Positions 3,280 through 23,776 are shown, counted from the stretch's first letter. The stretch is DNA of 32,000 bases from Myxococcales bacterium (GCA_016712525.1 JADJQX010000008.1:856958-888957); one strand, 5' to 3'. Numbers and translations: made by a program. Notes: generated by a model from the sequence alone, not told the origin.

Positions 3280-3477
3280 CTACTTCGCCTCGCTCTTCTT
3301 CTCGGTCATCACGGTCTTCACGCGCGCGATGTCACGGCGGGCCTGCTTGAGGGCCGCGGTGTTGTCGAGGCGGTTCGTGAAGTTCTTGAAGCGGTTCTGA
3401 AAACGCTCACGGGTGAGGGTCTTCTCGAGCTCGGCGAGCTCTTCCGCGGTGCGCTCACGCAGATCCTTGGCCTTCAT
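3280..3477 (-). CDS. rpmC: 50S ribosomal protein L29
   Basis: 65 aa. [28 protein letters not shown]....[21 protein letters not shown] is L29-like. ATGA overlap with the rplP stop. Confidence 0.93.
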
Positions 3478-3890
3478 TGAATCACTCCACGAACGAGGAA
3501 CTTGTAGCCGAGGGGGAGCTTGTGGCCGGCGAGGCGGAAGGCCTCACGCGCGACGCTCTCGTCGATGCCCGAGATCTCGTACATGACGCGACCGGGCTGG
3601 ATGTCGGCAGCCCACTCTTCCACGCCGCCTTTGCCTCCACCCATGCGGACTTCCAAGGGCTTCTTGGTGACCGGGCGGTGGGGGAAGATGCGGATCCAGA
3701 GCTTGCCGGCGCGCTTCACGTGGCGGGTGATCGCCATACGAGCGGCTTCGATCTGACGAGCCGTGAGGCGGCCGGGCTCGGTCGCCTGCATGCCGAAGTC
3801 CCCGAACGAGACGTCACTGCCGCGCGCGGCAATGCCCTTGTTCGAGCCCTTCATCATCTTGCGGAACTTGGTGCGCTTGGGGGAAAGCAT
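3474..3890 (-). CDS. rplP: 50S ribosomal protein L16
   Basis: [13 protein letters not shown]...[45 protein letters not shown] is the canonical L16 pattern. Confidence 0.97.
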
Positions 3891-5008: not shown

Positions 5009-5557
5009 TTGAGAACCTTCTGGCCCCGTCGTACCCACGCTCGAGAACGATTTCTTCGATCGCGTGGGCCGTTACGGCTGCCCAATCAGAGAGAGAGGAC
5101 TTCCCGTACCCTTCCGGGAGACGGGAGCGCGCACTCTACGCAGAACGTCCATCTTCGCAAGCAGAAACGATCCTTTGGCGCCGCTTTTCTGCCGGGATGG
5201 CCTTTCCATGGCGTCCATGGCCCCGCCGCGGGCGGCGCGAGGGTCGCCCGCGGTACGCGAAGGCGCCACGACTCCCGTCGCCTCCTCGAGGAAGGCGAAG
5301 CGGGCTCGGCGGGTGCCTTAGGGCGCCTCGGCTTTCCCGTTCGAGCCCACGCGAGCTTTCGCTCGGGGTCGCCCATCCGGGAAAATAGAATCGGCGCCAC
5401 GTCAACCGGCTGGGGGGGGGGACGGCCAGGTCAACGTAGCGCCGGTTACGCCTATTGCGACCGGCGTGCCAGGCGCTGGGTACGTACTTTCAGACAGTTA
5501 CCCGTCGTTTTGGGGCACCCATTTTTCATTTTTGCAGCGCGCATTGCGAAAGTGGTG

Positions 5558-5662: not shown

Positions 5663-7183
5663 ATGGCCGACATCCACGACACCCTCGATCGCGTGACCCG
5701 AGGCGGGGCGCCCAAGTACCACCAGAAGAACGCGGAGACCGGGAAGCTCTTCGCGCGCGAGCGCATCACGAAGCTCGTCGATGCCGGCTCGTTCCAGGAG
5801 GACGGGGCCCTCGCCAACGTCGTCGACGCCGAGCTCCCTGCGGACGGCGTCATCTGCGGCACCGCGACGATCGACGGCCGTCCCGTCGCCCTGATGGCGA
5901 ACGACTCGACCGTGAAGGCGGGCTCGTGGGGGAAGCGCACCGTCGAGAAGATCCTCCGCATCCAAGAGACGGCCGCGAAGCTGCGTGTCCCGATGCTCTA
6001 CCTCGTCGACTCGGCCGGCGCGCGCATCACCGATCAGATCGAGATGTTCCCTGGCAAACGCGGCGCGGGGCGCATCTTCTTCAACCAGGTGAACATGAGC
6101 GGCGCCGTGCCGCAGGTGTGCCTTCTCTTCGGGCCGAGCGCGGCCGGCGGGGCCTATATTCCTGCGTTCTGCGACCTCGTCGTGATGGTCGAGGGGAACG
6201 CGAGCATGTACCTCGGGAGCCCCCGCATGGCCGAGATGGTCATCGGCGAGAAGGTCTCACTCGAGGACCTCGGCGGCGCGAAGATGCACTGCTCGGTGTC
6301 GGGCTGCGGCGATGTGCTCGTGAAGACGGAGGAAGAGGCGATCGACTTCTGCAAGCGGTACCTGTCGTACCTCCCGCAGAGCTGCGACGACGAGCCCGAG
6401 ATGGTCGCCTCGAAGGCGGCGAAGGCGGGCAAGCCGATCGAGGAGATCGTGCCGAAGGAAGAAGGAAAGTCCTTCGACATCGTGCACGTGATCGAGTCCA
6501 TCGTGGACGAAGGCAGCTTCCTCGAGATCAAGAAGCTCTTCGCTCGCGAGCTCGTCACGGGCTTCGCTCGCATCGAGGGGCGCGTGGTCGGCATCGTCGC
6601 GAACCAGCCGAAATGGCTCGGGGGGATGTTGCTCGTCGACTCGGCCGACAAGGCCGCCCGCTTCATCTGGCTCTGCGACGCCTTCAACGTGCCGCTGCTC
6701 TACCTGGCCGACGTGCCCGGGTTCATGATCGGCACGAAGGTCGAGCGGCAAGGCATCATCCGCGCGGGCGCGAAGATGATCGCGGCCGTCAGCGAGGCCA
6801 CCGTACCGAAGCTCTGCGTGGTCGTGCGCAAGGCGTACGGCGCCGGACTCTACGCCATGTGCGGCCCGGCCTTCGAGCCCGAGGCGACGATCGCCCTCCC
6901 CGGCGCGTCGATCGCCGTGATGGGCCCGGCCCCGGCCGTGAACGCCGTTTATTACAACAAGATCCAGGAGATCCCCGCGGGTCCCGAGCGCGACAAATTC
7001 GTGGCCGAGAAGCAGGCCGAGTACCGCGCCGACATCGACCTCATGAAGCTCGCGAGCGACCTCGTCATCGACGCCGTCGTGCCGGGAGACCGGCTCCGCG
7101 CCGAGATCTCGCGCAGGTTCGAGCGCGCCGAGGGCAAGGAGGAGCTCCGGCTCGCGAAGAAGCACATGGTCCCGCCGGTCTGA
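5663..7183 (+). CDS. Acyl-CoA carboxylase carboxyltransferase (beta) subunit, PccB/AccD5/MccB-like. Substrate is not assignable from sequence alone.
   Basis: 506 aa. ...KLFARERITKLVD.GSF.E...DGVI.G.ATIDGRPVALMANDSTVKAGSWG..T.EKI.R.QE.A.....P...LVDS.GAR...Q...F...GRIF......SG.VPQ......GPSAAGGAYIPA..D...MV is typical of the carboxyltransferase family. GAAGG lies 8 nt before the ATG. Third-codon-position GC is high. Confidence 0.9.
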   Translation: MADIHDTLDRVTRGGAPKYHQKNAETGKLFARERITKLVDAGSFQEDGALANVVDAELPADGVICGTATIDGRPVALMANDSTVKAGSWGKRTVEKILRIQETAAKLRVPMLYLVDSAGARITDQIEMFPGKRGAGRIFFNQVNMSGAVPQVCLLFGPSAAGGAYIPAFCDLVVMVEGNASMYLGSPRMAEMVIGEKVSLEDLGGAKMHCSVSGCGDVLVKTEEEAIDFCKRYLSYLPQSCDDEPEMVASKAAKAGKPIEEIVPKEEGKSFDIVHVIESIVDEGSFLEIKKLFARELVTGFARIEGRVVGIVANQPKWLGGMLLVDSADKAARFIWLCDAFNVPLLYLADVPGFMIGTKVERQGIIRAGAKMIAAVSEATVPKLCVVVRKAYGAGLYAMCGPAFEPEATIALPGASIAVMGPAPAVNAVYYNKIQEIPAGPERDKFVAEKQAEYRADIDLMKLASDLVIDAVVPGDRLRAEISRRFERAEGKEELRLAKKHMVPPV

Positions 7184-7213
7184 CGACCGACACCACGCGC
7201 CCCGGTACGAACC

Positions 7214-7258
7214 GACGCGGCGAGGCAGCCCAAGAAGGCGCCCGCCGCGTCCTTTTTT
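7214..7258 (+). terminator. Rho-independent terminator downstream of the carboxyltransferase gene
   Basis: GACGCGGCG (7214-7222) pairs perfectly with CGCCGCGTC (7243-7251), with an extra GGC/GCC extension. It is followed by C and T6 (7253-7258), 31 nt after the stop codon. Confidence 0.75.
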
Positions 7259-7325
7259 GCGCGGATGTTCCGCGTCGACGGCGCGTGGCTCGCCCTACCC
7301 TGCCCCCCGCGCTACGCTCTCCGCC

Positions 7326-7781
7326 ATGATTCCTGTCGCGCTCGTCGTCGTGCTGGTGCTCCTCTTCGTGTGGCTCAGGTTCAAGGGCGCGCCCGTCCCC
7401 CGCACCAAGCCGAGCGCGCCGACGTCGACGCCGGTCGACACGTTCGTGGCCGAGGCGCTCGCCCTCGAGCTTCGCAAGGTGAAGGGGCTCGACACGGAGG
7501 CGATTCGTCGCAAGCTCGTGGGCACCCTCGCCGGGGAGCCCGACCCGGACGTGGTCTCCGCGATCTCGCACGACGTGAAGGACGTGGAGCTCGAGTTCAC
7601 CAAGCTCTCCCACGAGACCGACGCCGAGCTCGCCGTAGTCGTGCGCTACGAGGACGGCCGCGAGGGCCGCGTGGCGAAGCGTATCGGCCTCGGGGATCTG
7701 CCGAAGGACGTGGTCGACGAGCTCACGAAGCGCGCCGTGACCCGCGTGTACCGCCCGTGGTCGTTCTCCTGGGAGCGCTGA
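7326..7781 (+). CDS. Hypothetical small protein with one N-terminal transmembrane helix (151 aa)
   Basis: ATG at 7326 gives MIPVALVVVLVLLFVWLRFKG..., a hydrophobic anchor followed by basic residues and then an acidic soluble part. Third-position GC is high. No recognisable RBS (ctctccgccATG), so the start is uncertain. The track start at 7257 lies inside the upstream terminator and was rejected. Confidence 0.6.
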   Translation: MIPVALVVVLVLLFVWLRFKGAPVPRTKPSAPTSTPVDTFVAEALALELRKVKGLDTEAIRRKLVGTLAGEPDPDVVSAISHDVKDVELEFTKLSHETDAELAVVVRYEDGREGRVAKRIGLGDLPKDVVDELTKRAVTRVYRPWSFSWER

Positions 7782-7853
7782 GGACCGCATCGTCGGGCCT
7801 GTCGGCAGAGCCGTCCGGCATCCGCGGGAACAAAAGGGCGCGACCTCCCGTCC

Positions 7854-10205
7854 ATGCGGCCCGTGAGCTCGCTCTCGCCGCTCGTCGTGCACGGAAAGCT
7901 CCTGTGGGAATCGGTCGTGGCGCTCGCCTGCGTCGCGGGGATCGTGGCCGCGTGGCTGCTTCCGCGGCGCGCCCGGCGCCGGAGGGCCGCGGCGATCCGT
8001 GCGGGCCTCGGCGGGGGGACGTCGAGCCTGGCGCCTCCGTCGCCCGAGAAGCTCGTCGTGGTGTCGGGAAAGGTAGTCAAAGCATCGGGCTCACCCGAGA
8101 AGAAGCTCGCCGCCGCGACCCTCGTCCCGGCGGCGATGGCGTTCGCCGAAGAGGGCTCGAAGAGCGCCCATACCGCCACGGCGGCCGGTGAGCCGCTCGT
8201 CTTGGAGGTGGGCGGCGCGCACGTCGCGCTCCACGGGGACGTGCAAATCCTCGTGGGCTCACGCGAGTCCGGCCGAGGCCTCGCGCGACGACGAGCGCAC
8301 CGCGCCCTCGAGGACCTCGCGAGCCAGCTCGAAGGCAAGACCCGGGACGGGCTCGCGCTGCGCACGCTCCACACGGGCGACCTCGTCAGAGCTCAAGGAA
8401 TCCTCCGGCACACCCCGAGCGAGACGGGCGCCGAGTCCTACCGGGTCGCCGCGTCCGCGTACACGTTGAGCCCGAGCGAGGAGGGCAACCACCCCGGCAT
8501 CGTCCCCGTCGCGTTCGAAGGCGCCCCGTCGCCGCTCGAACAATCGCGGCCCGAGGTCGTAGGGCGCGTGCTCGCCTTCCCGGCCCTCGCGTTCGTCGCC
8601 CTCGCCGCCGTCGGGGAGCTCGCGATGCACTCGGCGCCGTCGAGCCCGGGGGTCGCGACGATCGCCGCCGCGACCCCGCTCCGAAGGTTCGAAGCCCTCG
8701 CCGCGCTGCGCGCCCAGACGAGCCTCTCCGCTTCCCCGAGCGATGCGACCTTGAGGGACCAAGCCTCTCTCGACACCCTCCGAGGCTTCTACGGCATGGC
8801 CTCGGACGACTACGCGCGCGCGAACCGACCCGACGAGGCCGCAAAGATCGCAGCGCACTACGGAGATCCCTTTCGTGTGGCGCGCGCGCGCTTCGTGAAC
8901 GGAGAGATCTCCGAGTCGGCCCGTGCCTTCGCGAGCGCCCGCGCGCGTGATCCCAAGCTCCCCATCACGATCTCCGAGGTGACAGCGTACGTTCTCACCG
9001 ACGATTTCGAGCGCGCAGCGACGGGTGCGCACGCGCTGCTCGCCAACTGGGACGGCCCCAAGGGCTCGCAAGACGAGCTCCAGTGCATCGTCGACGCGAT
9101 CGACCACCGCGCCGGAGGCAGCCACGACACGGGCGCGCTCGAACGCCACGCGCGCGAGGGAGCGACGCGGGTCCCCTGCACGCTGCTCATGCTCGATCTC
9201 CGCGATGGGACCGAGGGCGCATCCGGCGACGACACGCTGTCGGAGCTCCGCTCGGACCCCCGCGTTCGGAGGTACCTCGAGCCACTCACCCCTGGCAGGT
9301 TCGGCAGTTGCACCTTCCCTGCGAGCGACATCTTGGGCTGCTGGGACGCGAGCGACGCCTTCGGGCCGGGCATGATCACCGATCCGAAAGCGATCGCCTT
9401 CTACCTTCCGCAGGCGCTCGCGCTCCAGGCCTTCCAGCACACACTCTCGGAGGTATCGAGTCACGGTTGGCTGGGCGCGGACATGGCGTTGGCCGCCTCC
9501 TTGTACGCCGCCACGCGCACCTTCCTCGGTGACGTCGAGGGCGCACTGACCATCCTCGACGTGGCGGGCCGCGCCTTCGCGCCCCTTGCAAGACGTGCAG
9601 AGCTGGAAGAGCGCCGCCGCGCTTCGCTCGACCCGCCCCAGGATCCACACTTCCCTCACGATCCGCGCGACGGCCTCGACCTGATTCGGAGCACACGGGC
9701 CGCGGTTCTGCTTCGAAGCGGTCGAGCTCGGGACGCGCTCCGTTTGCAGCCTTCCGGAATGGCCGCAAGGTTCTCGACCCTCGCGCACGTCATGGGGGCC
9801 TACGACCCGAGCGAGCAACGTGAGCTGGCCGAACGCGACGACCGCGAGCTCAACGCCAAGCTCTGGAACGCCGCCTACACGGGAGACGGGACCGTTCTCG
9901 TAGACGCCCTTCGGGCAGGCGAGGGCGACGGACGGGGCGTGGTGGACGTGGTGGCGTGGCACATCCCGAGCGGGCGCGCGGCCCTCGCGTCGTGGGTTCG
10001 GTATGAGTACCCCGCGCCCTGCTCGACGTGTGGTCTCTATCCCCTCATGAACAGCCTCGGCTCACGCCTCGACGCCGCGCACGCGACCGGCGACGAGGCC
10101 ACCGTGCGCGAGCTCGACGCCGTCCGGGTGCGCCTCGACCCGTACCTCGCGCGCCGCCAGGACGCGCTGCTCGTCCACTTCTTGAGCCTCCTTTCGCCAC
10201 CCTAA
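7854..10205 (+). CDS. Large membrane protein of unknown function, paralog A (783 aa). Layout: TM1, ~200-aa beta-rich module, TM2, ~520-aa helical Cys-containing domain.
   Basis: Long ORF with high third-position GC. Hydrophobic segments are WESVVALACVAGIVAAWLL (followed by RRARRRR) and VLAFPALAFVALAAVGELAM. Conserved as a second copy 2590 bp downstream. No family recognised by eye. Confidence 0.8.
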   Translation: MRPVSSLSPLVVHGKLLWESVVALACVAGIVAAWLLPRRARRRRAAAIRAGLGGGTSSLAPPSPEKLVVVSGKVVKASGSPEKKLAAATLVPAAMAFAEEGSKSAHTATAAGEPLVLEVGGAHVALHGDVQILVGSRESGRGLARRRAHRALEDLASQLEGKTRDGLALRTLHTGDLVRAQGILRHTPSETGAESYRVAASAYTLSPSEEGNHPGIVPVAFEGAPSPLEQSRPEVVGRVLAFPALAFVALAAVGELAMHSAPSSPGVATIAAATPLRRFEALAALRAQTSLSASPSDATLRDQASLDTLRGFYGMASDDYARANRPDEAAKIAAHYGDPFRVARARFVNGEISESARAFASARARDPKLPITISEVTAYVLTDDFERAATGAHALLANWDGPKGSQDELQCIVDAIDHRAGGSHDTGALERHAREGATRVPCTLLMLDLRDGTEGASGDDTLSELRSDPRVRRYLEPLTPGRFGSCTFPASDILGCWDASDAFGPGMITDPKAIAFYLPQALALQAFQHTLSEVSSHGWLGADMALAASLYAATRTFLGDVEGALTILDVAGRAFAPLARRAELEERRRASLDPPQDPHFPHDPRDGLDLIRSTRAAVLLRSGRARDALRLQPSGMAARFSTLAHVMGAYDPSEQRELAERDDRELNAKLWNAAYTGDGTVLVDALRAGEGDGRGVVDVVAWHIPSGRAALASWVRYEYPAPCSTCGLYPLMNSLGSRLDAAHATGDEATVRELDAVRVRLDPYLARRQDALLVHFLSLLSPP
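8403..9178 (+). repeat. Near-identical core of the tandem duplication (copy 1). It matches 10993-11768 at roughly 98% with perfect runs of ~212, ~147 and ~191 bp.
   Basis: Base-by-base comparison at a fixed offset of 2590 bp. Only scattered single mismatches were found (e.g. 8615, 8653, 8801, 8987, 9179), plus a small cluster around 8810-8920. Confidence 0.9.
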
Positions 10206-10269
10206 GGCTCTCCCAACCATTAGATATCAACACACATTCTGCACCTTCATCGAGCGCGGCACGTGGGTC

Positions 10270-10400
10270 GTCCCTGCCGGCACGGTCTCCTCGAGGCGCG
10301 CGCTAGAGTCGAGACAGAGGCCCTCTCGGGCATCTCGAACCACGTGTCGGCCATCGAGCTCGAGCTCTCGAAGCTCGCCCACGAGACCCACGCGGCGTCG
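10270..10400 (+). pseudogene. Decayed internal fragment of a second copy of the small gene at 7326-7781
   Basis: 10331-10393 aligns to 7562-7624 at ~79% nt identity and in frame (GISNHVSAIELELSKLAHETHAA vs AISHDVKDVELEFTKLSHETDAE). Upstream, LLEARARVETEAL aligns with LELRKVKGLDTEAI. The TM-encoding 5' end and ~180 bp of the 3' end are missing. The conserved GGGAACAAAAGG box follows in both copies. Confidence 0.55.
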
Positions 10401-10443
10401 CGGTGGTGGCGCTCCGGGAACAAAAGGTCTGCGCCGGGCGTCG

Positions 10444-12906
10444 ATGGGCCCCATGGGCTCACTCTCGCCGCTCGTGGTTCACGGAAAGCTCGTGTGGGAA
10501 TCGGTCGTGGCGCTCGCGTGCGTCGCGGGGATCCTGGCGGCCTGGCTCCTTCCGCGTCGCGCCTTTCGCCGGCGGGCCGAGGCGATCCGCGCGAGCCTCG
10601 GAGAGCCCACGTCGAGCCTCGCACCATCGTCGGCTGAGAAGCTCGTCGTGGTGTCGGGTAAGGTAGTCAAGGTCTCCGGATCACCCGACGAAAAGCTCGC
10701 CGCCGCGACCCTCGTCCCGGCGGCGATGGCGTTCGCGGAGGAGGGCTCGAAGCGCGCGCGCACGGCCACGGCGGCCGGCGAGCCGCTCGTCCTCGATGTC
10801 GGGGGTGCGCACGTCGCGCTCCACGGGAACGTGCAAGTTCTCGTGGGCTCGCGCGAGTCCGGGAAGGGGGTCGAGAAACGCCGCGCGCACGTCGCGCTGT
10901 GGGAGCTCGCGAGCCAGCTCGAAGGCAAGACCGAGGACGGCCTCGCGCTACGGACGCTCCACGCCGGCGATCTCGTCAGGGCGCAGGGCGTGCTCCGGCA
11001 CACCCCGAGCGAGACGGGCGCCGAGTCCTACCGGGTCGCCGCGTCCGCGTACACGTTGAGCCCGAGCGAGGAGGGCAACCACCCCGGCATCGTCCCCGTC
11101 GCGTTCGAAGGCGCCCCGTCGCCGCTCGAACAATCGCGGCCCGAGGTCGTAGGGCGCGTGCTCGCCTTCCCGGCCCTCGCGTTCGTCGCCCTCGCCGCCG
11201 TCGGCGAGCTCGCGATGCACTCTGCGCCATCGAGCCCGGGGGCCGCGACGATCGCCGCCGCGACCCCGCTCCGAAGGTTCGAAGCCCTCGCCGCGCTGCG
11301 CGCCCAGACGAGCCTCTCCGCTTCCCCGAGCGATGCGACCTTGAGGGACCAAGCCTCTCTCGACACCCTCCGAGGCTTCTACGGCATGGCTTCGGACGAC
11401 TACGCGCTCGCGAACCGGCCCGACGAGGCCGCAAAGATCGCCGCGCGCTACGGGGACTCGTTCCGCGTGGCGCGCGCGCGCTTCGTGAACGGCGAGATCG
11501 CCGAGTCGGCCCGTGCCTTCGCGAGCGCCCGCGCGCGTGATCCCAAGCTCCCCATCACGATCTCCGAGGTGACAGCCTACGTTCTCACCGACGATTTCGA
11601 GCGCGCAGCGACGGGTGCGCACGCGCTGCTCGCCAACTGGGACGGCCCCAAGGGCTCGCAAGACGAGCTCCAGTGCATCGTCGACGCGATCGACCACCGC
11701 GCCGGAGGCAGCCACGACACGGGCGCGCTCGAACGCCACGCGCGCGAGGGAGCGACGCGGGTCCCCTGTACGTTGCTCGAGCTCGACCTCCGCGACGGGA
11801 CGCGAAAGGCCGGAGAGGGCACCACCTTGGACCTGCACGTGCTCGGGCTGGGCCCGGACGAGAGGGTGCGGCGGTACCTCCCCGCGCTCGACAGAAAGCA
11901 GGCCTCCAAGGGGTGCGCCTACGGGCACTGCTTCCTCGAGTCGAACGCGAGCGCGTTCTTCACCGATCCGAGGCGAGCGGCGTTCGAGCTCCCACAACCG
12001 TTGAGCCTCGAGCTCTACCGCGAGGCCCGGAAGGACGCCGCCTCGGGGGAAGCGAAGCAGCTCGCCGAGCTCTCCGCCGCTGCGACGACCTACGCCGCCG
12101 CGCGTGCGTTCGTCGGGGACGTCGACGGCGCGCTCGGCATCCTCGACGAGACCGAGCGGATCCTCGCGCCGCGCGCGAAGCGGTCGTACACCGACGACCA
12201 GCGCGCCGAGTGGGAGTCCCGCATGTGGCGCGTGGGCACGAGCGACGACTGGGACGTCCGTCAGCGCCAGATCGAGGCCGAAGAGGCGCGCCTCCGCAAG
12301 ACCTACGACCCCGACCGCGACGCCGCCGAGCGCGCCGCCGAGGTGCACCTTCGGCAGGCTCGTGCGGCACGCGCCGGCGTCTTGCTCCGACGAGGCCGCG
12401 CGGTCGAGGCCCTCGCCGCGCACCCGAAGTACGAGACCAGCCTTCGAGCCTCCGAACCGACCGACGCCCTCTTCGGCACGTTCGCGAGGGCCGTCGGCGC
12501 CTTCGACCCTTCGTCGCAACGTCAGCTCGCCGCGGACGACGGCCGCGAGCTCAACACGAAGCTCTGGAACGCCGCCTACACGGGAGACGGGGCCGTCCTC
12601 GTGGACGCGCTCCGGGCGAGCGAGGGGGACGGACGAGGCATCGTCGACGTCGTCGGGTGGAACATGCCACGCGGGCGCGAGGCCCTCGCCACGTGGGTTC
12701 GGTACGAGTACCCGGCCCCCTGCTCGACGTGCGGCCTCTACCCCCTCATGAACAGCCTCGGCTCACGCCTCGACGCCGCGCACGCGACCGGCGACGAGGC
12801 CACCGCGCGCGATCTCGACGCCGTCCGTGCCCGCCTCGACCCGTACCTCGCTCGGCGCGACGACGCGCTGCTCGTGCACTTCTTGAGCCTCCTCTCGCCC
12901 CCTTAA
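10444..12906 (+). CDS. Large membrane protein of unknown function, paralog B (820 aa), tandem duplicate of 7854-10205
   Basis: Same architecture and start context as paralog A. N-terminal 445 aa and C-terminal ~120 aa are highly similar. The middle ~250-280 aa is strongly diverged and 37 aa longer. Confidence 0.8.
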   Translation: MGPMGSLSPLVVHGKLVWESVVALACVAGILAAWLLPRRAFRRRAEAIRASLGEPTSSLAPSSAEKLVVVSGKVVKVSGSPDEKLAAATLVPAAMAFAEEGSKRARTATAAGEPLVLDVGGAHVALHGNVQVLVGSRESGKGVEKRRAHVALWELASQLEGKTEDGLALRTLHAGDLVRAQGVLRHTPSETGAESYRVAASAYTLSPSEEGNHPGIVPVAFEGAPSPLEQSRPEVVGRVLAFPALAFVALAAVGELAMHSAPSSPGAATIAAATPLRRFEALAALRAQTSLSASPSDATLRDQASLDTLRGFYGMASDDYALANRPDEAAKIAARYGDSFRVARARFVNGEIAESARAFASARARDPKLPITISEVTAYVLTDDFERAATGAHALLANWDGPKGSQDELQCIVDAIDHRAGGSHDTGALERHAREGATRVPCTLLELDLRDGTRKAGEGTTLDLHVLGLGPDERVRRYLPALDRKQASKGCAYGHCFLESNASAFFTDPRRAAFELPQPLSLELYREARKDAASGEAKQLAELSAAATTYAAARAFVGDVDGALGILDETERILAPRAKRSYTDDQRAEWESRMWRVGTSDDWDVRQRQIEAEEARLRKTYDPDRDAAERAAEVHLRQARAARAGVLLRRGRAVEALAAHPKYETSLRASEPTDALFGTFARAVGAFDPSSQRQLAADDGRELNTKLWNAAYTGDGAVLVDALRASEGDGRGIVDVVGWNMPRGREALATWVRYEYPAPCSTCGLYPLMNSLGSRLDAAHATGDEATARDLDAVRARLDPYLARRDDALLVHFLSLLSPP
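10993..11768 (+). repeat. Near-identical core of the tandem duplication (copy 2), matching 8403-9178
   Basis: See copy 1. The offset is exactly 2590 bp. Confidence 0.9.
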
Positions 12907-13011
12907 GGATGCTCGCAAATACATGATTTAATTCGTACTTATCCCATTGCGAGAACACTCGACGCGACGCGTTGGGTTGCCCTCCGAGCCGAGATTCGAT
13001 AACCCGCGGCG

Positions 13012-14550
13012 ATGCTCCACGTACCCGAGACCTCGAGCTGGTCCAACGTCGCCGTCCGCGCCCGCGCCCTCTGCCCCGAGGCGTTCCAAGGCGAGCGGCT
13101 GCTCAACCTCATCGACGGCGCGTGGGGGCACCCGGGCAGCCCGAGCCGCTTCTTCTCCCCGAACGACGGCACCGAGCTCTACGCCCTCCCGATGATCGAC
13201 CTCGCGACGGCCTCGGCGGCCGTGAAGTCGGCGCACAAGGAGCAATCGGCCTGGGGCGAGCTCCCGTACCACGAGCGGCGGCGCAGGGTCGAGGCGGTGC
13301 TCGCGGATCTCCAGCAGAACCGAGAGCTGCTCGCCCTCACGCTCGCGTGGGAGATCGGCAAGCCGATGCGCCTCGCCGAGAGCGACGTCGACCGCTGCAT
13401 CGACGGCGTGCGGTGGTACCTCGACGAGGCCGAGGTCATGAGCGCCGGCCGAGCACCCCTCGGGCTCATCTCGAACATCGCGTCGTGGAACTACCCGATG
13501 AGCGTGCTCATGCACGCGGTGCTGGTTCAGGTGCTCGTGGGCAACGCCGCCATCGCCAAGACCCCCACGGACGGCGGCGCGTTCACGCTCACGATCGCGT
13601 TCGCGCTCGCGCGGCGCCACGGGCTCCCGGTCTCGCTCGTGAGCGGGAGCGGGGGTCGGCTCTCGGAGGCCCTCGTGCGCCACGAGTCGATCGAGTGCCT
13701 CGCGTTCGTCGGCGGCAAGGCCAGCGGGCGCGACATCGCGACGAGCCTCGTCGATCGCGGCAAGCGCCACATGCTCGAGATGGAGGGCCTCAACGCCTGG
13801 GGCATCTGGGACTACACCGACTGGCCCGCGCTCATGAAGATCCTGAAGAAGGGCTTCGAGTACGGGAAGCAGCGCTGCACCGCGTACCCGCGGATCGTGA
13901 TCGAGCGCCGCCTCTTCCCGCGGTTCCTCGAGCACTACCTCCCGATGCTCGCGAGCCTCAAGTTCGGGCACCCGCTCGCCGTCGAGAAGGCCGGCGACCC
14001 GTACCCCGATCTCGACTTCGGCCCGCTCATCAACGCGAAGAAGGTCGAGGAGCTGCTCGCCCTCACGTCGTCGGCGATCTCGGGCGGCGCCGTCGCCCTC
14101 TTCGAGGGGCGCATCGACTCGGCGCGCCTCCTCTCGGGCCAAGATACGTCGTCGTACTTCGCGCCGGTCTCGCTGCTCGGCGTGCCCCGCGGCAACGCCC
14201 TCTACCACGCCGAGGCGTTCGGCCCGATCGACAGCCTCGTGCCGGTGACCACGAAGGACGAGCTCGTCGCCGAGATGAACGTGTCGAACGGCTCGCTCGT
14301 CGCCAGCATCGCCTCGGACGACGACGCCGTCGCCAAGCGCCTCGCCTCGCAGGTGCGCGGGTTCAAGGTCGGCGTGAACAAAATCCGCAGCCGAGGAGAC
14401 CGCGACGAGGCCTTCGGTGGCATCGGCGAGTCGTGGCGCGGCTCGTTCGTCGGCGGCAAGTACCTCGTGCTCGCCGTCACCGTCGGAGAGAAGGACGAGC
14501 GCCTCTTCGGAAACTTCGACGACTACACCCAGCTCCCTTCGGTTCGCTGA
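13012..14550 (+). CDS. Aldehyde dehydrogenase family protein (divergent member)
   Basis: 512 aa. WNYP (NAD-binding region), AFVGGKASGRDI (like F.TGST.VG), LEMEGLNA at the catalytic-Glu position, GKQRCTA (catalytic Cys), EAFGPI, and AFGGIGESWRGSFVG (like PFGG.K.SG.G) all follow the ALDH superfamily order. Confidence 0.88.
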   Translation: MLHVPETSSWSNVAVRARALCPEAFQGERLLNLIDGAWGHPGSPSRFFSPNDGTELYALPMIDLATASAAVKSAHKEQSAWGELPYHERRRRVEAVLADLQQNRELLALTLAWEIGKPMRLAESDVDRCIDGVRWYLDEAEVMSAGRAPLGLISNIASWNYPMSVLMHAVLVQVLVGNAAIAKTPTDGGAFTLTIAFALARRHGLPVSLVSGSGGRLSEALVRHESIECLAFVGGKASGRDIATSLVDRGKRHMLEMEGLNAWGIWDYTDWPALMKILKKGFEYGKQRCTAYPRIVIERRLFPRFLEHYLPMLASLKFGHPLAVEKAGDPYPDLDFGPLINAKKVEELLALTSSAISGGAVALFEGRIDSARLLSGQDTSSYFAPVSLLGVPRGNALYHAEAFGPIDSLVPVTTKDELVAEMNVSNGSLVASIASDDDAVAKRLASQVRGFKVGVNKIRSRGDRDEAFGGIGESWRGSFVGGKYLVLAVTVGEKDERLFGNFDDYTQLPSVR

Positions 14551-14608
14551 GCGCGGGCGGCTCGGGCGCGAACGAGGCTGGCAACGATCCGGCGTCACGC
14601 CCCCCGCG

Positions 14609-14631
14609 CCCTCGGCTCACCTCGCCGAGGG
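14609..14631 (+). terminator. GC hairpin downstream of the aldehyde dehydrogenase gene (possible terminator, no U-tract)
   Basis: CCCTCGGC (14609-14616), loop tcacctc, GCCGAGGG (14624-14631): a perfect 8-bp stem ~60 nt after the stop codon. No T-run follows. Confidence 0.3.
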
Positions 14632-14819
14632 ACGGCGCGCGTCGTGGCGCCCCCACCTGGAGAGAAGACTACTCCTTTCGGCCACTTGCGCGTGCGTCGT
14701 GACGTCCGATCGACCTCAGCCGTTGAACCGGATCGGGGAGTACCCAGGTCGGCCGATAATTCGCACGCCCCGACCCGAGCCCGCTACCATCGTTCGAGAA
14801 GGCCCTCGCTCGTTCTCCC

Positions 14820-16214
<1,395 letters not shown>

Positions 16215-16304
16215 GGGCGGCATCGGTCCTCGCACGCACGACCGACCGCTGGACGAACGATCCTGTTGCGGATCCGTGCGCGGCCATCTACGGAGGGCAT
16301 ACCC

Positions 16305-17621
16305 TTGGAGACCGAGACACGCGCCCCGAAAGACGTCTTGCTCGCTTTGGCCCGGCAAAAACCGGCACTCGAGCTCGGGTCGACCGACGTCGTCTTCCTC
16401 GCGGCGCTGCACCTCCGCGGGTCTCGTTCGGCGCTCGCGTCGTTCGACGAGCCCACCCTCGTCGACGTGTTCGAAGAGGTGATGACCTTCGTCGACGAGG
16501 GCAAGAGCAGGCGCCGCGCGACGCACGCGATCCGCAGGCTGCGCGACCAACGCACGCTCTCGCGCGTCGATCACGCGGGGGTCGTCCGGCGCGGCGAGTT
16601 CGCCCTCACGCGCCTCGGCACCGCCATCGCCGAGTTCTTCCTCGACGAGGACGCCCTCACCCGAGAGGCGCTCACGTTGCTCATGCGTACCTTGCTGACG
16701 AGCCTCGGCGGGATCGTGGCCCAAGGGGCCGCGCTCGTGCACACCCCGGAGGCCTTCCGCGACGCGGTAGAAGCGCCGCTCCGGGTGACGGTGCGTGACC
16801 TCGTGTCGGGCATACAGCGCCGGCAGAGGGGGTTCGACCTCCAACAAGAAGAGCTGCGGCACGAGGTCGGTGAGCTCTTGCGCGCCGATTGGTTCGGGGC
16901 GGTCGAGCGGTGCCAAGAGCTCCTCGACGCGACCGGACGCACCCTGCGCGAGCTGGGCGAGGTCATCTTGCGCGACACGCACGCGGCGCAGGGCCTCTTG
17001 CAGGACGTGCAAGACCTCGCGGCCTCGGCGGGCTCCGAGCCGTCGGTCGACGCCGCGCGCGCGGTCATGGAGCAGGTCGACCGTGTAGCGGCCTGGGGCA
17101 CCGCGAGGCAGCGCGCCTTCTCCGAGTACTACCAGTACGTACATAGGTTCCTCCGCGACGTGGTGCGGCTCGACCCGTCCCGAGCGCTCACGCAGCGGCT
17201 CCGCGACCAGCTCGGCGGCGCGGTGGGGCGGAAGTTCTCGCTGGTGGTCGCGGGCGAGGCGCCGCCGTGGCTCCTCCGAGACGGCCCTCCCCCACGCGAC
17301 GACGGGCCCCCGGTGAAGCGCCCCAAGAAGCCTCGTGAGCCCGAGCTCGAGACGACCGACGAAGGCCCCGACCCACGCGAAGTGCTCGAGGCGGCCGTGA
17401 CGGCGGCGCTCACCGAGGGCGTCCCCACGTTGAGCGCGCTCACCGAGAGGACGACCCGAGACACCCCGGCAGAGGCGCGGTTCGTCGCGGCGGGCCGGGT
17501 GGCCGAGATCGCGGGCAAGCTCGTGCGCCCACTCGCCCGCGCCGAGCGCGCCTGGATCCCGACGGGAGACGGCTACGAGCTCGAGGAGTGGACGCTGCCA
17601 CGAAAGGGCGTAGCGCTGTGA
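16305..17621 (+). CDS. mukF: MukF-like kleisin subunit of a MukBEF/MksBEF-type condensin
   Basis: Collinear with E. coli MukF as I recall it: LLRADWFGAVERCQELLDATGRTLRELG vs [28 protein letters not shown], and YYQYVHRFLRDVVRLDPSRALTQRLRDQL vs [29 protein letters not shown]. TTG at 16305 is preceded by GGAGGG with a 7-8 nt spacer and gives 438 aa (MukF is 440). The track start TTG at 16266 is less likely. Confidence 0.85.
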   Translation: METETRAPKDVLLALARQKPALELGSTDVVFLAALHLRGSRSALASFDEPTLVDVFEEVMTFVDEGKSRRRATHAIRRLRDQRTLSRVDHAGVVRRGEFALTRLGTAIAEFFLDEDALTREALTLLMRTLLTSLGGIVAQGAALVHTPEAFRDAVEAPLRVTVRDLVSGIQRRQRGFDLQQEELRHEVGELLRADWFGAVERCQELLDATGRTLRELGEVILRDTHAAQGLLQDVQDLAASAGSEPSVDAARAVMEQVDRVAAWGTARQRAFSEYYQYVHRFLRDVVRLDPSRALTQRLRDQLGGAVGRKFSLVVAGEAPPWLLRDGPPPRDDGPPVKRPKKPREPELETTDEGPDPREVLEAAVTAALTEGVPTLSALTERTTRDTPAEARFVAAGRVAEIAGKLVRPLARAERAWIPTGDGYELEEWTLPRKGVAL

Positions 17622-18448
17622 GCTCTCCCCGCTTCGTACGGCTCGAGGACGTGGTGGCCGATCCGCTCTTCCCGGACGCCGACCTCGCGCTCCGTCGCGG
17701 CCGTCACGTCGACGCCGACGACCTCGCCCTGTACACGTTCCTCACCGAGGCGAGGCCCTACCTCGAGGCCTTCTACGAGCGGTTCGGGGCCGAGCTCGTC
17801 CACAAGCCCGACGGCTATTTTTACCTTCTCCCCACGTCGGACAAGCTGGGAAAACGGTACCTCCGCCCCATCGAGATGCTGGTCGGTCAGGCGATGGCGC
17901 TGCTCTACCTCGACCCTCGGACGGTGGAGCACGGGGGCACGGTCACGCGTGACGACGTGCTCGGGCAGCTCGCCTCGGTGCTCGGCACGGACGACCTCGT
18001 TCGAGCGTTTTTCCCTGGGAAGAAGAAGATCGACGAGCGCGTCGCGCAGGAGGGCGTGCGCGCGCGCGTGAACGACGCCATGAAGAAGCTCGCATCGCTC
18101 GGGTTCGCGGCGACGGACCGCGAAGGTCGCACCAAGCTCGGCCCCGCGCTCCTACGGTTCGCCGAACCGGCGCGCCTCTCCGAGCCGAGCGAGGCCGTGC
18201 TCGCCCGCCTCGCGGCCGAGGGTGAGCTGCTCGTCACGGGCGACGAGCACACGTTCGACGACGACGACGACCACGACCACGACGCCCTCGACGACGATGG
18301 CGCGGCCGACGCGACGAGCCCCACGAGCGACCCTCCCGAGGCGACCCGCGCGGAGCACGAGGCCGAGCCCCGAGCCGACGAGGACGCTCCCACCGAAGAC
18401 CCGCCCGTCGATCACGATCTCCCCGGGGCCCCGTCGGACGAGCCATGA
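17618..18448 (+). CDS. mukE: MukE-like subunit of a MukBEF/MksBEF-type condensin, with a long acidic/His-rich C-terminal tail
   Basis: DPLFPDADLALRRGRHVDADDL...YLEAFYERFGAELVHKPDGYFYLLP vs E. coli MukE [22 protein letters not shown]...[25 protein letters not shown]. GTG at 17618 overlaps the mukF stop (GTGA) and has AAAGGG 9 nt upstream. The track start at 17588 has its GAGGAG box too close. Confidence 0.85.
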   Translation: MSSPRFVRLEDVVADPLFPDADLALRRGRHVDADDLALYTFLTEARPYLEAFYERFGAELVHKPDGYFYLLPTSDKLGKRYLRPIEMLVGQAMALLYLDPRTVEHGGTVTRDDVLGQLASVLGTDDLVRAFFPGKKKIDERVAQEGVRARVNDAMKKLASLGFAATDREGRTKLGPALLRFAEPARLSEPSEAVLARLAAEGELLVTGDEHTFDDDDDHDHDALDDDGAADATSPTSDPPEATRAEHEAEPRADEDAPTEDPPVDHDLPGAPSDEP

Positions 18449-21400
18449 ACCGAGCGAAGGCGACCGCGCTCGCGCTCGTGAACTGGAAGGGCGTGTTCTA
18501 CGAGCGCTACCTCCTCGATCGCAGCGTGACCGCGCTCGAGGGCGCGAACGGCGCCGGCAAGACCACCGTGATGGTGGCCGCGTACGTCGTGCTCATGCCC
18601 GACATGACGCGCCTCCGCTTCTCCAACGTCGGAGAAGGGAGCGGCGCGACCTCGGCCGACAAGGGCGTCTACGGGCGCCTCGGTGAGCCGGGGAGGCCCT
18701 CGTACGCCGCCATCGAGGTCGACGTGGGGACCGAGCGGCTCGTCATGGGCGTGTGCCTCGTGCGAAAGACCGAGCCTCAGGTGGAGCTGTCGCCGTTCCT
18801 CGTGCGTCGGCTCGACCTCGACGGGAGCTTGAAGGGGATCTTGCTCTCGAGCGACGGCGGCGAGGACGTCGTGCCCAAGCTCGACGACGTCGTCGCGGCG
18901 GTCCGCGCGAGAGGTGGCACGATCGACCTATTTTCCTCGGCTCGCGACTACTTCACGGCCCTCTTCGACCTCGGCATCACGCCGCTCCGGCTCGCGTCGG
19001 ACGAAGATCGCACCAAGCTGAACGAGATGCTCCGCACGAGCATGACCGGCGGGATCTCGAAGGCCATCACGGGGGAGCTGCGCTCGTTCTTGCTGCGGGA
19101 GGAGCCCGGCCTCTCCGAGACCCTCACCCACATGCGCGCGAACCTCGACGCGTGCCACAGGACGCGCACCGAGGTGGCCGAGGCGCGTGTGCTCGAGCGC
19201 GAGCTCTCCGCGGTGCACGACGCCGCGCGGGCCACGGTCGCGTCCGCGCTGGGGGCGGCCTTCGCGATCGACCGGGAGCTCGCCACGCGACGACGCGAGG
19301 CCGAAGCAGCCCGAGACGCGGCGCGGGCCGTGGTCGCCGAGCTCGCGTCGGAGCTCGCGGTCGCCCGCGACGAGAAACGTGCGCTCGCGAACGAGCAGGA
19401 CCGCGCCCGGACCCGCCTCGAAGAACGACGCGCCGACGTCGAAGCCACGCTCGCGGCGCGGGCGCTCGAGAAGCGGCTCGACGAAGAGCGACGTCACGCA
19501 CAAGACCTCACGCGCACCTACACGGAGCGTGCGGCGGAGCGCGACCTCGCCGTCGCCCACCGCGACGAACGACGCGTGGCGAGGGACCGCGCGCGCGATG
19601 CCTACGATCGTGCGGCCCGCGGCCTCGCCGACGTGCAGTCCGGGCTCGACGACTTGCACACGAGCGCCGCGGCCTCCCGGAGGCTACGGGCGGCCCTGGG
19701 AGATGCCGGGACCCACCTCGGACGCCTCGTGCCTCTCGACCCGAGCTCCGTCGCGATCGAGCTCCGCGACGCGCGCGCGGCGCTCGGGCTCGCCGATCAG
19801 AGGCTCACCAAGCTCGAGAGGGACCTCGCGACGAGCGACGTGCGACGGGCCGAACGGTCAGAGGCGCTCGGTGCGCTCGCGCGCCTCACGGGCGCCGAGG
19901 CCCCCCACGCCGAGGTGAGCCCCAAGCCCGTGCTCGCCGAGGGCGCGCGCCTCGAGGCGGAGGCGAACAAAGTGGAGGGGCTCCGGCGCGAGCTCGCGGA
20001 AGCCCGTGCCCTCGCGCGGCGCCAACGTGACCTCGCGGAGAGCGCGCGGGGCTTGGGCTTCGACGCCCCCGGGGCGGGCTGTCACGCGACGGTGGCCCAA
20101 GCCGTCGCGACCGCCGATCGCCGCCTCGGGGATCTCTCGCTGCTCACCGAGCGGCTCGCGGCGAAGGCCGCCTCGAGCACCGCCGCCCGCGACGCAGCAA
20201 AAGAGCGTGTCCTCGCGCTGACCGCCGTGGTCACGAGGTACTCGGCTGCCGCATCCATGGCCGAGCGGCTCGCCGGCGTGCTCGGCCTCCCCGCGGGCTC
20301 GAGGCTCGACCCCCACGCCGCGCGCGCTCGCCTCGACGATCTGCGGCAATCGTCCCGGGACAGGCTCCGCGACCTCGAAGCCCGGGCCACCTCCATCGCC
20401 GACGAGGTCGAGCGGCTCGAACGCCCCGGCCCCTCGTTCGACCGGGAGATCCTGCGCCTCCGGGACGAGCTCGACGGGGAGCTCTTCTCCCTTCGGTTCG
20501 AGGACCTCGACGTCGACGACGCCGCGCGGAAAGAGGCCGCCTTGGGCGAGCTCGTCGCGGGCATCGTCGTCGAGTCGCCGGAGGCGGCGCTACGCGACGT
20601 CGTCGGCAAAGCGCGCGACGTCGACACCGTGCTGCTCGTTCGGCCGGACGCCGAAGCCACGACCGGCACCATCGTCGGCGAGGCGGGAGGCGACGTCGTC
20701 GTCGCCGAGCCCTTCGGCCTAAGGGTCACGCGCCTGCCGAAGGAGCCGTCGCTCGGCGCGAGCGCTCGACGAAGCCGCGCAGTCAGGCTCCGTGAGGACG
20801 CGGCGATGCTCCGGAAGGGTATCGACGAAGAGCGAACGAACGCGGCCCGCCTCGACGAGGCCCACCGCTCCCTCGACACGCTCTTCGTCGACTTCGTGAT
20901 CCTCGAGGCCGGAGATCCTTCGCCTGCGCTCGCGGCGGCGCGGGCCGACATAGCCCGCCTCGACGAGGAGGCCGAGGTCGCCGCTCGAGACCTCGGAGCG
21001 GCGCGCGGGGAGGCGGCCGGCCTTCGACAAAAATCCGAACCGTTACGAGCACTTCTAAGCGAAGGCCACCTGCTCGAGCTCCCGGACCACACCGAGCGCG
21101 AGCGAGGGCTCGAGGCCGCCCTCGCGAAGGCCGAAGAATGCGCTCGGGAGCTCGCCGAGAAGGCCGCCGACTACGCGACCCTCTCGCGCCTCGCGCACGC
21201 GCTCGCAGGAGAGCCGCCGAACGACGAGACGACACGCGCGACGAGAGACACGTGCGCCCGCGAACGCGACGCCCTCTACCGGGCCGTGGTCGCCCTCGAG
21301 GACGCCGAGACGGCCGCGGGCGCCATCGTCCACCGCGACGCCGAGCGCCTCCTCGCCGAGCGCGCGACCGTCGTGCCCGCCCTCGAGGAGGCGCACGTGC

Positions 21401-22917: not shown

Positions 22918-22924
22918 GGGTCGG

Positions 22925-23467
22925 TCAGTCCCGGGTGGCGTCGAAGCCGCCGTCGAGGAGGCCCGTGGGCACGCACTCGGCCGCACACTTGTCCTGGATG
23001 CAGCCCGCGATCGCAAGGCCGTTCGTCTGGACGCTCTGGGGCGCCGTGGCGAGACCCGAGGCGCAGAGGAGCAACGTCTGCTGCGACACGCCGCCCGAGC
23101 CGGGCTTGAGCACGCACTCGAGGACCGCGATGATCGGCTCCTGGCAGGTGCAGTCCTTCATGCAGGTGTCGACCTCGGCCTTGCACTTCGACTTCACGCA
23201 GCCCGCGCAGAGGCCGGTCGTGAGCCCCGAGTCGCCGACCGATGCATCTTGCACGTTCTTGAACGGGTCGATGTTCGGATCGCACGCCGGCGCCGTATCC
23301 TTCCCGGCGTCCTTCGGGACCGACGTGTCCGGCACCGACGTGTCCGGCACCGACGTGTCGGCCGCCGCGTCGGCGACCTCTTCCGTGCCACCACACCCTT
23401 GCGCCGTCATCATGCCGACCGCGAGGGCCGACGCCACCACCACGAGACCGATACGTACCCGCTTCAT
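22925..23467 (-). CDS. Secreted or lipid-anchored Cys-rich protein (180 aa) with a (DTSVP)3 repeat
   Basis: ATG at 23467 is preceded by GGAGGAG. MKRVRIGLVVVASALAVGMMTAQGC is a signal peptide with a lipobox-like Cys. The mature part has 12 further Cys in clusters (CAGCVKSKCKAEVDTCMKDCTC, CIQDKCAAEC). The track's 251-aa version starts in the intergenic region and is not supported. Confidence 0.7.
   Translation of the reverse strand: MKRVRIGLVVVASALAVGMMTAQGCGGTEEVADAAADTSVPDTSVPDTSVPKDAGKDTAPACDPNIDPFKNVQDASVGDSGLTTGLCAGCVKSKCKAEVDTCMKDCTCQEPIIAVLECVLKPGSGGVSQQTLLLCASGLATAPQSVQTNGLAIAGCIQDKCAAECVPTGLLDGGFDATRD
23321..23362. repeat. 15-bp tandem repeat, ~2.8 copies (cgacgtgtccggcac), encoding DTSVP DTSVP DTSVP on the minus strand
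   Basis: Units at 23321-23335 and 23336-23350 are identical. The third unit, from 23351, diverges after 10 nt. Confidence 0.9.
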
Positions 23468-23485
23468 CACGCTCCTCCGATCCGA

Positions 23486-23617: not shown

Positions 23618-23776
23618 TCCAGCGAAGGCCCCGTAGCCGCGCTGCGGCAAAGCACTTCGTGTGCGGAAGCCTGCGGCCAAGCCGAGAGCCGGGTGCTACG
23701 CCATAGTGAGGCGCGATCTTTTCGGTTCGTGTCTTTCGGCTCTCCTCTCGATCGAAGACCTCAACGTCGGAGTGGC

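Follow-up and report, generated by a model that had tools for sequence, protein, structure and literature searches.

The two large genes described here lie side by side on the forward strand of a 32,000-nucleotide stretch of DNA (hereafter the window; GCA_016712525.1 JADJQX010000008.1:856958-888957, G+C content 69.5%), part of a 1.75-Mb contig of a metagenome-assembled 'Myxococcales bacterium', of which a near-identical strain carries the label Polyangiaceae. Copy 1 is an open reading frame (ORF) of 783 amino acids (aa) at positions 7854–10205 (NCBI MBK8218627.1, locus tag IPK71_33265) and copy 2 an ORF of 820 aa at 10444–12906 (MBK8218628.1, IPK71_33270). The two form an old tandem pair whose divergence changes in blocks, with a central tract of near-identity at 8403–9178 in copy 1 and 10993–11768 in copy 2. 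We attribute these blocks to interlocus gene conversion between the tandem paralogs, a reading to which we give a probability of roughly 0.8, and which retains the interpretation of the original prediction, made from the window sequence alone.

Compared in ungapped register unless stated otherwise, the first 549 bp of the copies (7854–8402) are 83.4% identical and the central tract 97.7% (18 mismatches in 776 bp). From 9179 onward identity falls to about 51% (about 55% over 9179–9790, with indels), and the last 415 bp stand at 85.5%, peaking at 91–95% within 9971–10120. The central tract contains perfect runs of 212 bp (8403–8614), 147 bp (8654–8800), 76 bp (8911–8986), and 191 bp (8988–9178), with a cluster of four mismatches at 8615–8653 and a 110-bp island (8801–8910) that holds 13 of the 18 mismatches. 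When the 109 mismatches over 1325 bp were permuted, a run of 212 bp was reached in none of 20,000 permutations (the longest permuted run was 152). The original prediction had described much of this layout, including the two ORFs with starts 2590 bp apart, ~85% identity over the first ~550 bp, near-identity over 8403–9178 with runs of ~212, ~147, and ~191 bp (exact as far as they go, the 76-bp run being additional), and the collapse at 9179/11769; its figure of ~90% for the last ~370 bp was roughly right.

The start codons are probably GTG at 7863 in copy 1 (780 aa) and ATG at 10453 in copy 2 (817 aa), which we prefer because M-[SG]-SLSPL opens the protein both in the NCBI calls and in the family profile; these revised starts are likewise 2590 bp apart. 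The offset of the direct repeat grows from 2590 bp at the 5′ end to 2701 bp at the 3′ end, since copy 2 has 111 extra bases in its divergent part.

Silent sites were examined in four blocks, in order the N-terminal, central, divergent, and C-terminal blocks, with synonymous (dS) and nonsynonymous (dN) divergence computed by the Nei-Gojobori method. Between the copies, dS was 0.47, 0.07, 1.17, and 0.40 and dN/dS 0.22, 0.12, 0.55, and 0.24 across the four blocks, respectively. Four-fold degenerate sites, counted only in codons with a conserved amino acid and conserved first two bases, differ at 35 of 116 positions in the N-terminal block (0.30), 10 of 163 in the central block (0.06), 33 of 57 in the divergent block (0.58), and 25 of 78 in the C-terminal block (0.32), and restriction of the divergent block to its well-aligned stretches gives 24 of 41 (0.59). 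The central block differs from its flanks (Fisher p = 1e-9), as do the well-aligned divergent stretches from the N-terminal block (p = 0.002), and the divergent-block value of 0.58–0.59 equals the saturation level seen against a species-level outgroup (0.51–0.61). Three distinct levels of silent divergence (0.06, 0.30, and 0.59) thus lie along one gene pair, with statistically distinct ages. Since the levels at silent sites differ between blocks, uniform ageing under varying protein constraint is excluded, in line with the earlier argument that a uniformly ageing duplicate would not fit; the comparison of identity, dS, and dN along the copies, proposed with it, gave blocky rather than uniform divergence.

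Bootstrapped neighbour-joining trees were built from DNA block by block, with homologous loci of other assemblies (designated by L numbers) for comparison. In the N-terminal region, bootstrap support is 100% both for joining window copy 1 to the copy 1-type gene of L007 and for joining window copy 2 to the single-copy genes of L001 and L008. In the central tract the two window copies group together at 94% bootstrap (100% for the part at 8911–9178), and in the island at 8801–8910 they do not. The copies are 97.7% identical to each other over the central tract versus 94.1–95.7% to orthologs, the best sampled allele reaching 95.7%. Each copy is 94.6–95.7% identical to its own ortholog in this tract versus 97.3–98.5% in the N-terminal region, and copy 2 and L015 similarly share 93–96% identity in the central tract versus 98–100% in the adjacent 5′ region.

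The direction of exchange was read from informative sites, at which the copy 1-type references (L006 and L007) differ from the copy 2-type references (L001 and L008). In the N-terminal region, 81 of 81 such sites separate the window copies almost cleanly. In the central tract, the window copies are identical at 28 of 31 sites in a B/A/B patchwork, both carrying copy 2-type bases at 8450–8657, 8759–8760, and 8916–9154 and copy 1-type bases at 8685–8717; only the island retains copy 1-type bases in copy 1 and copy 2-type bases in copy 2. Independent support for a patch moving from copy 1 to copy 2 is given by the protein sequence, in which window copy 2 reads RRFEALAAL, as in all copy 1 types, and five other copy 2-type alleles read RRY[ED]AIAAL. 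Sequence was therefore transferred in both directions, or else patchy repair of a heteroduplex took place.

Taken together, the tract shows what distinguishes interlocus conversion: paralogs closer to each other than to their orthologs, heterogeneity at silent sites, and an improbably long identical run. Gene conversion over the central tract, as put forward in the original prediction, is supported by the silent divergence, the switch in tree topology, and the run-length permutation, a recombination-type test of the kind suggested with it. The prediction had further called the conversion or recombination recent, which stands for the central tract, converted in both directions with an island left behind; the duplication itself is old.

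The duplication can be read at the junction between the copies. Homology between copy 1 and copy 2 runs about 50 bp beyond the stop codon, and the segment after the copy 1 stop (10206–10255, forward strand), which includes the AT-rich GATATCAA..CATT, has homologous sequence downstream of copy 2 or of the single-copy gene; the end of this homology at ~10255 marks the right end of the duplicated unit. Further on, the segment at 10309–10411 (forward strand) matches 7540–7643, the middle of a 151-aa gene upstream of copy 1, at 72–76% identity. This decayed remnant is 103 bp long and in frame, carries ETEALSGISNHVSAIELELSKLAHETHA, and corresponds to residues 73–101 of the small protein; it is 24–28% decayed, and ~190 bp are then deleted up to the promoter-like motif of copy 2. 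L006, an independent 2.4-kb contig from another metagenome, runs from the 3′ end of a copy 1-type gene across the same junction, remnant and deletion included, into a second copy (93% identity overall), and in L007 copy 1 lies directly downstream of the small gene. The population represented by L006 and L007 is that of JGI samples 3300042879 and 3300044622. A novel downstream-to-upstream junction, absent from the outgroups and reproduced in an independent assembly, is the mark of a tandem segmental duplication, and the ~2.6-kb tandem duplication proposed from the window sequence is borne out. The tandem arrangement is real, old, and polymorphic, and the duplication is old rather than recent because silent divergence is at least 0.3 and the remnant is 24–28% decayed. 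No transposase or integrase flanks the duplicated unit, as had been claimed, the neighbours being a carboxyl transferase, the 151-aa gene, an aldehyde dehydrogenase, and a kinase. One weak inverted repeat was all that was found besides, which does not amount to the signature of a mobile-element duplication.

Two further observations concern this junction. The remnant encodes 'HVSAIELEL', in which 'SA' is common only to the functional small gene of L007 ('DVSAVELEF', about 2100–2130 in L007); at this position other strains read 'KD' and outgroups 'RK' or 'KK'. Either the duplication arose in the L007 lineage, or remnant and gene exchanged sequence. In addition, an AT-rich GATATCAAMACRCATT-like element follows the stop codon of the large genes (10224–10245 and 12925–12950 in the window, 12470–12495 in L001) in a genome of 70% G+C. 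This element was duplicated together with the large gene and could be a terminator substitute or a promoter of the aldehyde dehydrogenase gene.

Copy number differs among related strains, a comparison that had also been suggested, with single and tandem states both present. Six conspecific assemblies (L001–L004, L008, and L015) carry one copy in the same context; L015 does so on a contig of 2.43 Mb, which matches the window at 97.5% identity along 11.9 kb, and L001 is 100% identical to the window across the ribosomal operon. Among more distant relatives, L005, L012, and L014 (proteins 45–50% identical) have one copy, of the copy 2 type with a longer divergent region; L005 and L012 retain the order of small gene, large gene, and aldehyde dehydrogenase, and in L014 the large gene lies beside the aldehyde dehydrogenase. 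L009 (38% identity) has one copy in a different neighbourhood. Given the single copy in both conspecifics and distant relatives, the single-copy state is ancestral, and within one species-level population the tandem state segregates as a presence/absence polymorphism of 2.63 kb. The segment present in the tandem haplotype and absent from single-copy haplotypes spans 7782–10411 (forward strand) and comprises the copy 1 spacer, copy 1, the post-gene segment, the junction, and the remnant. Copy 2 is of the ancestral type and is the ortholog of the one gene that related strains carry, and copy 1 is the derived, faster-evolving copy, with a longer branch to the outgroups and a dN/dS of 0.19–0.73 against its ortholog.

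Haplotype-diagnostic sites suggest how copy 1 may have reached this genome. The window follows L008 to about 7748 and from 10437 onward, and follows L006/L007 in between, with breakpoints at about 7749–7784 and 10411–10437; copy 1 of the window differs from the copy 1 of L006/L007 by a dS of 0.05–0.17, and the flanking genes by 0.26–0.29. The derived 'SA' residues that the remnant has in common with the small-gene allele of L007 alone point the same way. It is plausible from these patterns that the 2.63-kb segment entered an L008/L015-like backbone from an L006/L007-like tandem lineage by homologous recombination, and that conversion with the resident copy 2 followed. The opposite course, in which single-copy strains arose by deletion from a window-like tandem, was rejected, since those strains have an intact small gene and a copy 2-type spacer, which recombination between the small gene and the truncated remnant could not have produced.

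An exact-sequence look-up of both window proteins returned no further contigs, protein-pattern scans of genome and metagenome contigs returned no relatives, and a DNA-pattern scan returned nothing in metagenome contigs and two distant loci in genome contigs. A relative in a Minicystis bin was considered as a carrier of a tandem paralog and rejected, its 761-aa neighbour being unrelated. As side observations on the tandem contigs, the second copy of L006 (2045–2369, equivalent to 10453–10777 in the window) has a third type of 5′ region, with a dS of 0.65 against window copy 2 and 0.67 against copy 1 and a sharp drop in identity at about 10460–10520. The copy 1-type gene of L007 is missing ~85–100 bp and contains a frameshift at about 3395–3480 (about 8864–8964 in the window, near the island); L006, otherwise 99.9% identical to L007, is intact at this site, and the gap in L007 may be an assembly error at the repeat or a pseudogene variant.

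The course of events that we propose begins with an old head-to-tail duplication of a unit whose left end lay within the 151-aa gene and whose right end lay ~50 bp beyond the large gene's stop codon. Two complete paralogs encoding a predicted envelope protein specific to Polyangia resulted, each behind its own GGAAC-N17-CGTC motif, after which the second, partial copy of the small gene decayed and lost ~190 bp to give the present 2590-bp period. In this genome, 776 bp were then exchanged between the two large genes by homologous, non-reciprocal recombination, presumably RecA-dependent. Most of the tract moved from copy 2 to copy 1, leaving copy 2-type bases in both copies, about 8685–8717 moved from copy 1 to copy 2, leaving copy 1-type bases in both, and the 110-bp island escaped conversion. 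The tract breaks off sharply at 9179/11769 because homology runs out at that point, the next ~600–720 bp being the variable segment that is saturated at silent sites.

This variable segment occupies 9179–9790 in copy 1 (forward strand, aa 443–646) and 11769–12491 in copy 2 (forward strand). The copy 1 version is about 55% identical in DNA to that of copy 2, is shorter by 37 codons, and includes a Cys-x9-Cys loop; in copy 2 the Cys-pair spacing differs, a Cys-x4-Cys loop lying in the first part of the region (about 11750–12075, aa about 435–545). The interval 11750–12075 is hypervariable among single-copy strains as well, at 72–84% identity to L008/L015 where the flanks are 98–100% identical, with proportions of synonymous and nonsynonymous differences (pS and pN) of 0.35–0.49 and 0.11–0.40, respectively, and with allele classes that place window copy 2 and L001 against L008, L015, and P0003. 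The left boundary of the copy 1 divergent block coincides with the start of this hypervariable segment. Across the family, aa 446–683 are the least conserved and most gap-rich part of the protein, and in the predicted structure of copy 2 the divergent region includes low-confidence loops at 453–460 and 492–500, as judged by the predicted local distance difference test (pLDDT). In a protein tree, the copy 1 block is sister to the copy 2 block (96% bootstrap) on a branch about three times longer. The divergent block is either an unconverted residue of a duplication older than the N- and C-terminal blocks suggest or an imported cassette.

The second of these, in which the copy 1 block at 9179–9790 came from a distant unsampled relative and the duplication is only as old as the N- and C-terminal blocks (silent divergence ~0.3), is possible, if rather doubtful. 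Silent divergence in the block is at the outgroup saturation level and twice that of the N- and C-terminal blocks, and its left boundary at 9179 is abrupt and opens the segment in which L008/L015 differ by 16–28% from window copy 2 between flanks of 98–100% identity; from that hypervariability it follows that cassette-like replacement does occur at this position. Against this, a search with the copy 1 block alone found no donor and returned just another copy 1-type fragment, the block remains sister to that of copy 2 and not to any outgroup despite its long branch, and an older duplication with later-homogenised flanks explains the same numbers donor-free. Inter-strain recombination might also account for the central near-identity, had each copy independently received similar DNA from the population. 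Divergence between strains is indeed patchy, with a dS across the four blocks of 0.08, 0.19, 0.05, and 0.15 between copy 2 and L001 and 0.04, 0.18, 0.22, and 0.07 between copy 2 and L008, an equally patchy sliding pS, and population alleles that all lie within about 4–7% of each other in the central tract. Over this tract, however, the best sampled allele is 95.7% identical versus 97.7% for the sister copy, perfect runs of 147–212 bp occur only between the two copies, and the shared alternation of copy 1-type and copy 2-type patches fits exchange between neighbours where two identical imports would otherwise be needed. We consider such independent imports improbable.

An artefact of assembly or polishing, whether through the wrong joining of a strain variant as second copy or through pooled reads that made the central tract uniform, comes to mind given the metagenome-assembled source and the close single-copy strains in similar samples. 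Yet L006, from a different sample and assembler, has the same junction, remnant, and deletion, L007 places copy 1 right after the small gene, and the junction holds old decayed sequence rather than a clean strain join; moreover, the 110-bp island and the cluster at 8615–8653 show that the assembly kept the copies apart within the tract, and the expected divergence of 4–6% is enough to map reads to the correct copy. An artefact is very improbable on these grounds. A one-age duplication whose blocks arise from protein constraint alone, with no recombination, could appeal to the weak conservation and gaps of aa 446–683 across the family and to the highest dN/dS there (0.5–0.7). However, synonymous and four-fold divergence differs about ten-fold between blocks, the tree topology switches between them, and the central tract is not intrinsically slow, orthologs differing more there than in the N-terminal region; the silent-site levels and the topology change refute this account, and we give it practically no weight. 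Interlocus conversion has points weighing against it too. Its direction is defined by only 31 informative sites, and the copy 1-type reference (L006/L007) may itself be converted by its own copy 2, whose central part lies in no contig. Inter-strain recombination is pervasive at this locus, and copy 2 itself alternates between L001-like and L008-like blocks, so that some of the shared patches could have an outside source and not the neighbouring copy. The import of the 2.63-kb segment is drawn from short flanks, and the dS contrast behind it (0.05–0.17 versus 0.26–0.29) is modest. Finally, homogenisation of the central tract during polishing, which only the reads could strictly exclude, is made unlikely by the L006 junction and the preserved island.

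Each copy is preceded by a GGAAC-N17-CGTC motif on the forward strand, at 7827–7852 for copy 1 and 10417–10442 for copy 2. Both instances contain the box GGGAACAAAAGG, which occurs in the window only at 7826 and 10416 (0.04 expected), in agreement with the shared upstream box noted in the original prediction. The motif lies directly upstream of the start codon in every homolog fetched down to 38% identity (L001–L009; for example, 2196–2221 in L005, 2918–2943 in L009, and 9974–9999 in L001) and is absent from a 24%-identical Minicystis relative; its count in the window is not significant alone (2 found, 0.88 expected). GGAAC at −35 and CGTC at −10 are features of promoters recognised by extracytoplasmic function (ECF) sigma factors, including CarQ of Myxococcus xanthus (PMC3397946). 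Such a promoter would have the two elements about 16–17 nucleotides apart and conserved upstream of orthologs, as the present motif does, and from this conserved position we predict an ECF-sigma promoter, so that each copy probably has its own. CGTC ends 1–10 nucleotides before the candidate start codons, and the leader looks very short or absent. No sigma factor gene was identified in the window or neighbourhood. A sigma-70 promoter scan gave no promoter, the sole terminator-like site lies at 7237–7251, upstream of the 151-aa gene, and an Rfam scan of 7000–13200 gave no match.

The large proteins belong to an unnamed family. Neither copy matched Pfam, NCBIfam, or PADLOC, even with the N- and C-terminal halves taken alone at E values up to 10, the PADLOC anti-phage defence models matched neither these two nor the 151-aa protein, and when PDB sequences were searched with a profile, no match scored below E = 0.06. 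Exhaustive profile searching for family members returned 211 representatives at E ≤0.001, mostly of 700–830 aa, of which all the named ones are 'hypothetical' and those with a known source come from Myxococcales or Polyangiaceae bins and a Minicystis bin. An AlphaFold2 model of the 820-aa copy (pLDDT 84.7, predicted template modelling score 0.75) consists of a helix at 14–52 with a membrane segment, a ten-strand beta domain at 67–221, a membrane helix at 232–260, and an all-helical repeat domain at 265–820; on this layout, the conversion tract in copy 1 (aa 184–442) would encode the last beta strands, membrane helix 2, and the first helical repeats. Foldseek comparison with the PDB matched the beta domain to OB folds (the AspRS anticodon-binding domain, OBody, SSB, and MCM; E ≥0.003) and the helical domain to generic TPR/PPR solenoids only (E ≥0.007, template modelling (TM) scores of about 0.15–0.2). 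Weak TPR profile matches occur in a few of 21 relatives, with TPR_2 in three (best E 0.0023) and four other TPR models in one each (best E 0.0007). The model thus suggests a Polyangia family with two membrane helices, an OB-like barrel, and a TPR-like solenoid. The first membrane helix is followed by five arginines, and by the positive-inside rule the OB-like domain would be cytoplasmic and the helical domain periplasmic, together with its invariant cysteines, Cys411 and Cys442 in the numbering of the 820-aa ORF.

A partial likeness exists to DdvA, a transmembrane anti-sigma factor of M. xanthus with a periplasmic TPR-CHAT domain (PDB 8rw5; PMC11506125). Both are large myxobacterial inner-membrane proteins with a long TPR-like domain and a link to ECF sigma factors, which in the window consists of the promoter-like motif only. 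In contrast to DdvA, the window proteins lack a CHAT domain, their OB-like barrel lies between two membrane helices, and their genes have no sigma gene beside them; the structural match is weak (Foldseek E 0.024, TM 0.14). A DdvA-like anti-sigma role was rejected, with only about 13 residues before the first membrane helix, no zinc-binding anti-sigma domain, and no nearby sigma gene.

The surroundings are those of a core chromosome, with a minus-strand ribosomal-protein operon. Upstream lie the carboxyl transferase gene (5663–7183) and the partner gene of 151 aa (7326–7781, forward strand, identified by its ORF and translation), the product of which has one N-terminal membrane helix by hydropathy and matched nothing in Pfam, NCBIfam, or PADLOC. 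This small gene stands beside the large gene in L001–L008, L012, and L015 and is conserved in relatives down to about 57–59% identity. Downstream lie the aldehyde dehydrogenase gene (13012–14550) and a Ser/Thr kinase gene, and farther on a MukF/MukE/MukB-like operon and a methionyl-tRNA synthetase gene. The operon (16266–22917), adjoining the kinase gene, is a complete condensin operon in a Polyangia genome, with Pfam matches to MukB_N (6e-69), MukB_hinge, MukE/MksE, and MukF_M. Five long ORFs at 22871–24772 (forward strand) and 26835–31993 (reverse strand), of 633, 300, 534, 571, and 294 aa, had no Pfam match at E ≤1e-4. In comparison with L001, the window drops to 30–75% identity in three patches (5100–5500, 14389–14700, and 18085–18400), two of them intergenic and one at the mukE/mukB junction and the start of the mukB-like gene, which suggests localised replacement by recombination elsewhere in the region.

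The variable loop region has at least three allele classes here, namely copy 1, window copy 2 with L001, and L008/L015. One speculative and, in our estimation, unlikely function for the locus would be that of a population-level diversification module for an envelope sensor or receptor. Variable Cys-bracketed loops in a periplasmic helical domain would then fall into distinct allele classes, the conserved 5′ tract would serve as a landing pad for recombination, and the second copy would provide two specificities per cell, conversion keeping anchor and scaffold compatible as selection holds the variable parts apart. If so, two specificities could serve phage or kin recognition, or ECF-linked envelope signalling. 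Independently of function, the locus offers a well-resolved natural case of interlocus conversion in an uncultured myxobacterium of soil or sludge, in which the directions, an unconverted island, and a sharp homology-limited boundary are readable from sequence, and in which haplotypes with one copy and with the tandem pair are found side by side in one species-level population. It also draws attention to an unnamed family of about 211 representatives, with a hypervariable segment and, in members of at least 38% identity, the upstream motif, as a starting point for functional work.

Several known systems resemble this locus in part. In Neisseria, the pilE/pilS and opa genes undergo cassette-type variation of surface proteins by gene conversion, with promoterless silent donors. 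As there, conserved segments flank a hypervariable one, conversion between linked copies involves part of the gene, and alleles differ mainly in the variable segment. The Neisseria systems, however, move the variable part, whereas the window copies are both complete with their own promoter-like motif and the variable part is not exchanged; we found no evidence of programmed switching at the window locus. Another parallel is HMA4 of Arabidopsis halleri, in which mosaic divergence of tandem paralogs arose by interlocus gene conversion (PMC3749932; bioRxiv 10.1101/2025.10.29.685298). Both cases combine tandem copies of alternating near-identical and divergent blocks with conversion and the divergence of one copy. 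HMA4 is eukaryotic and its exchange meiotic, in contrast to a bacterial chromosome with inter-strain recombination superimposed.

The classic example of concerted evolution of bacterial paralogs by RecA-dependent gene conversion is the tufA/tufB pair of Salmonella and E. coli. The likeness lies in paralogs of one genome that are closer than orthologs over the tract, in homology-dependent, non-reciprocal transfer, and in a tract that ends where identity drops. The two tuf genes lie apart from each other and have been homogenised over nearly their full length; the window copies, in contrast, are adjacent direct repeats, homogenised over about a third of their length and in both directions, and their duplication is polymorphic within the species. 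Concerted evolution and gene conversion of paralogs have been surveyed across prokaryotes (PMC6053082), and the pair described here is a new example of this process, well known in bacteria, which leaves its general understanding unchanged.

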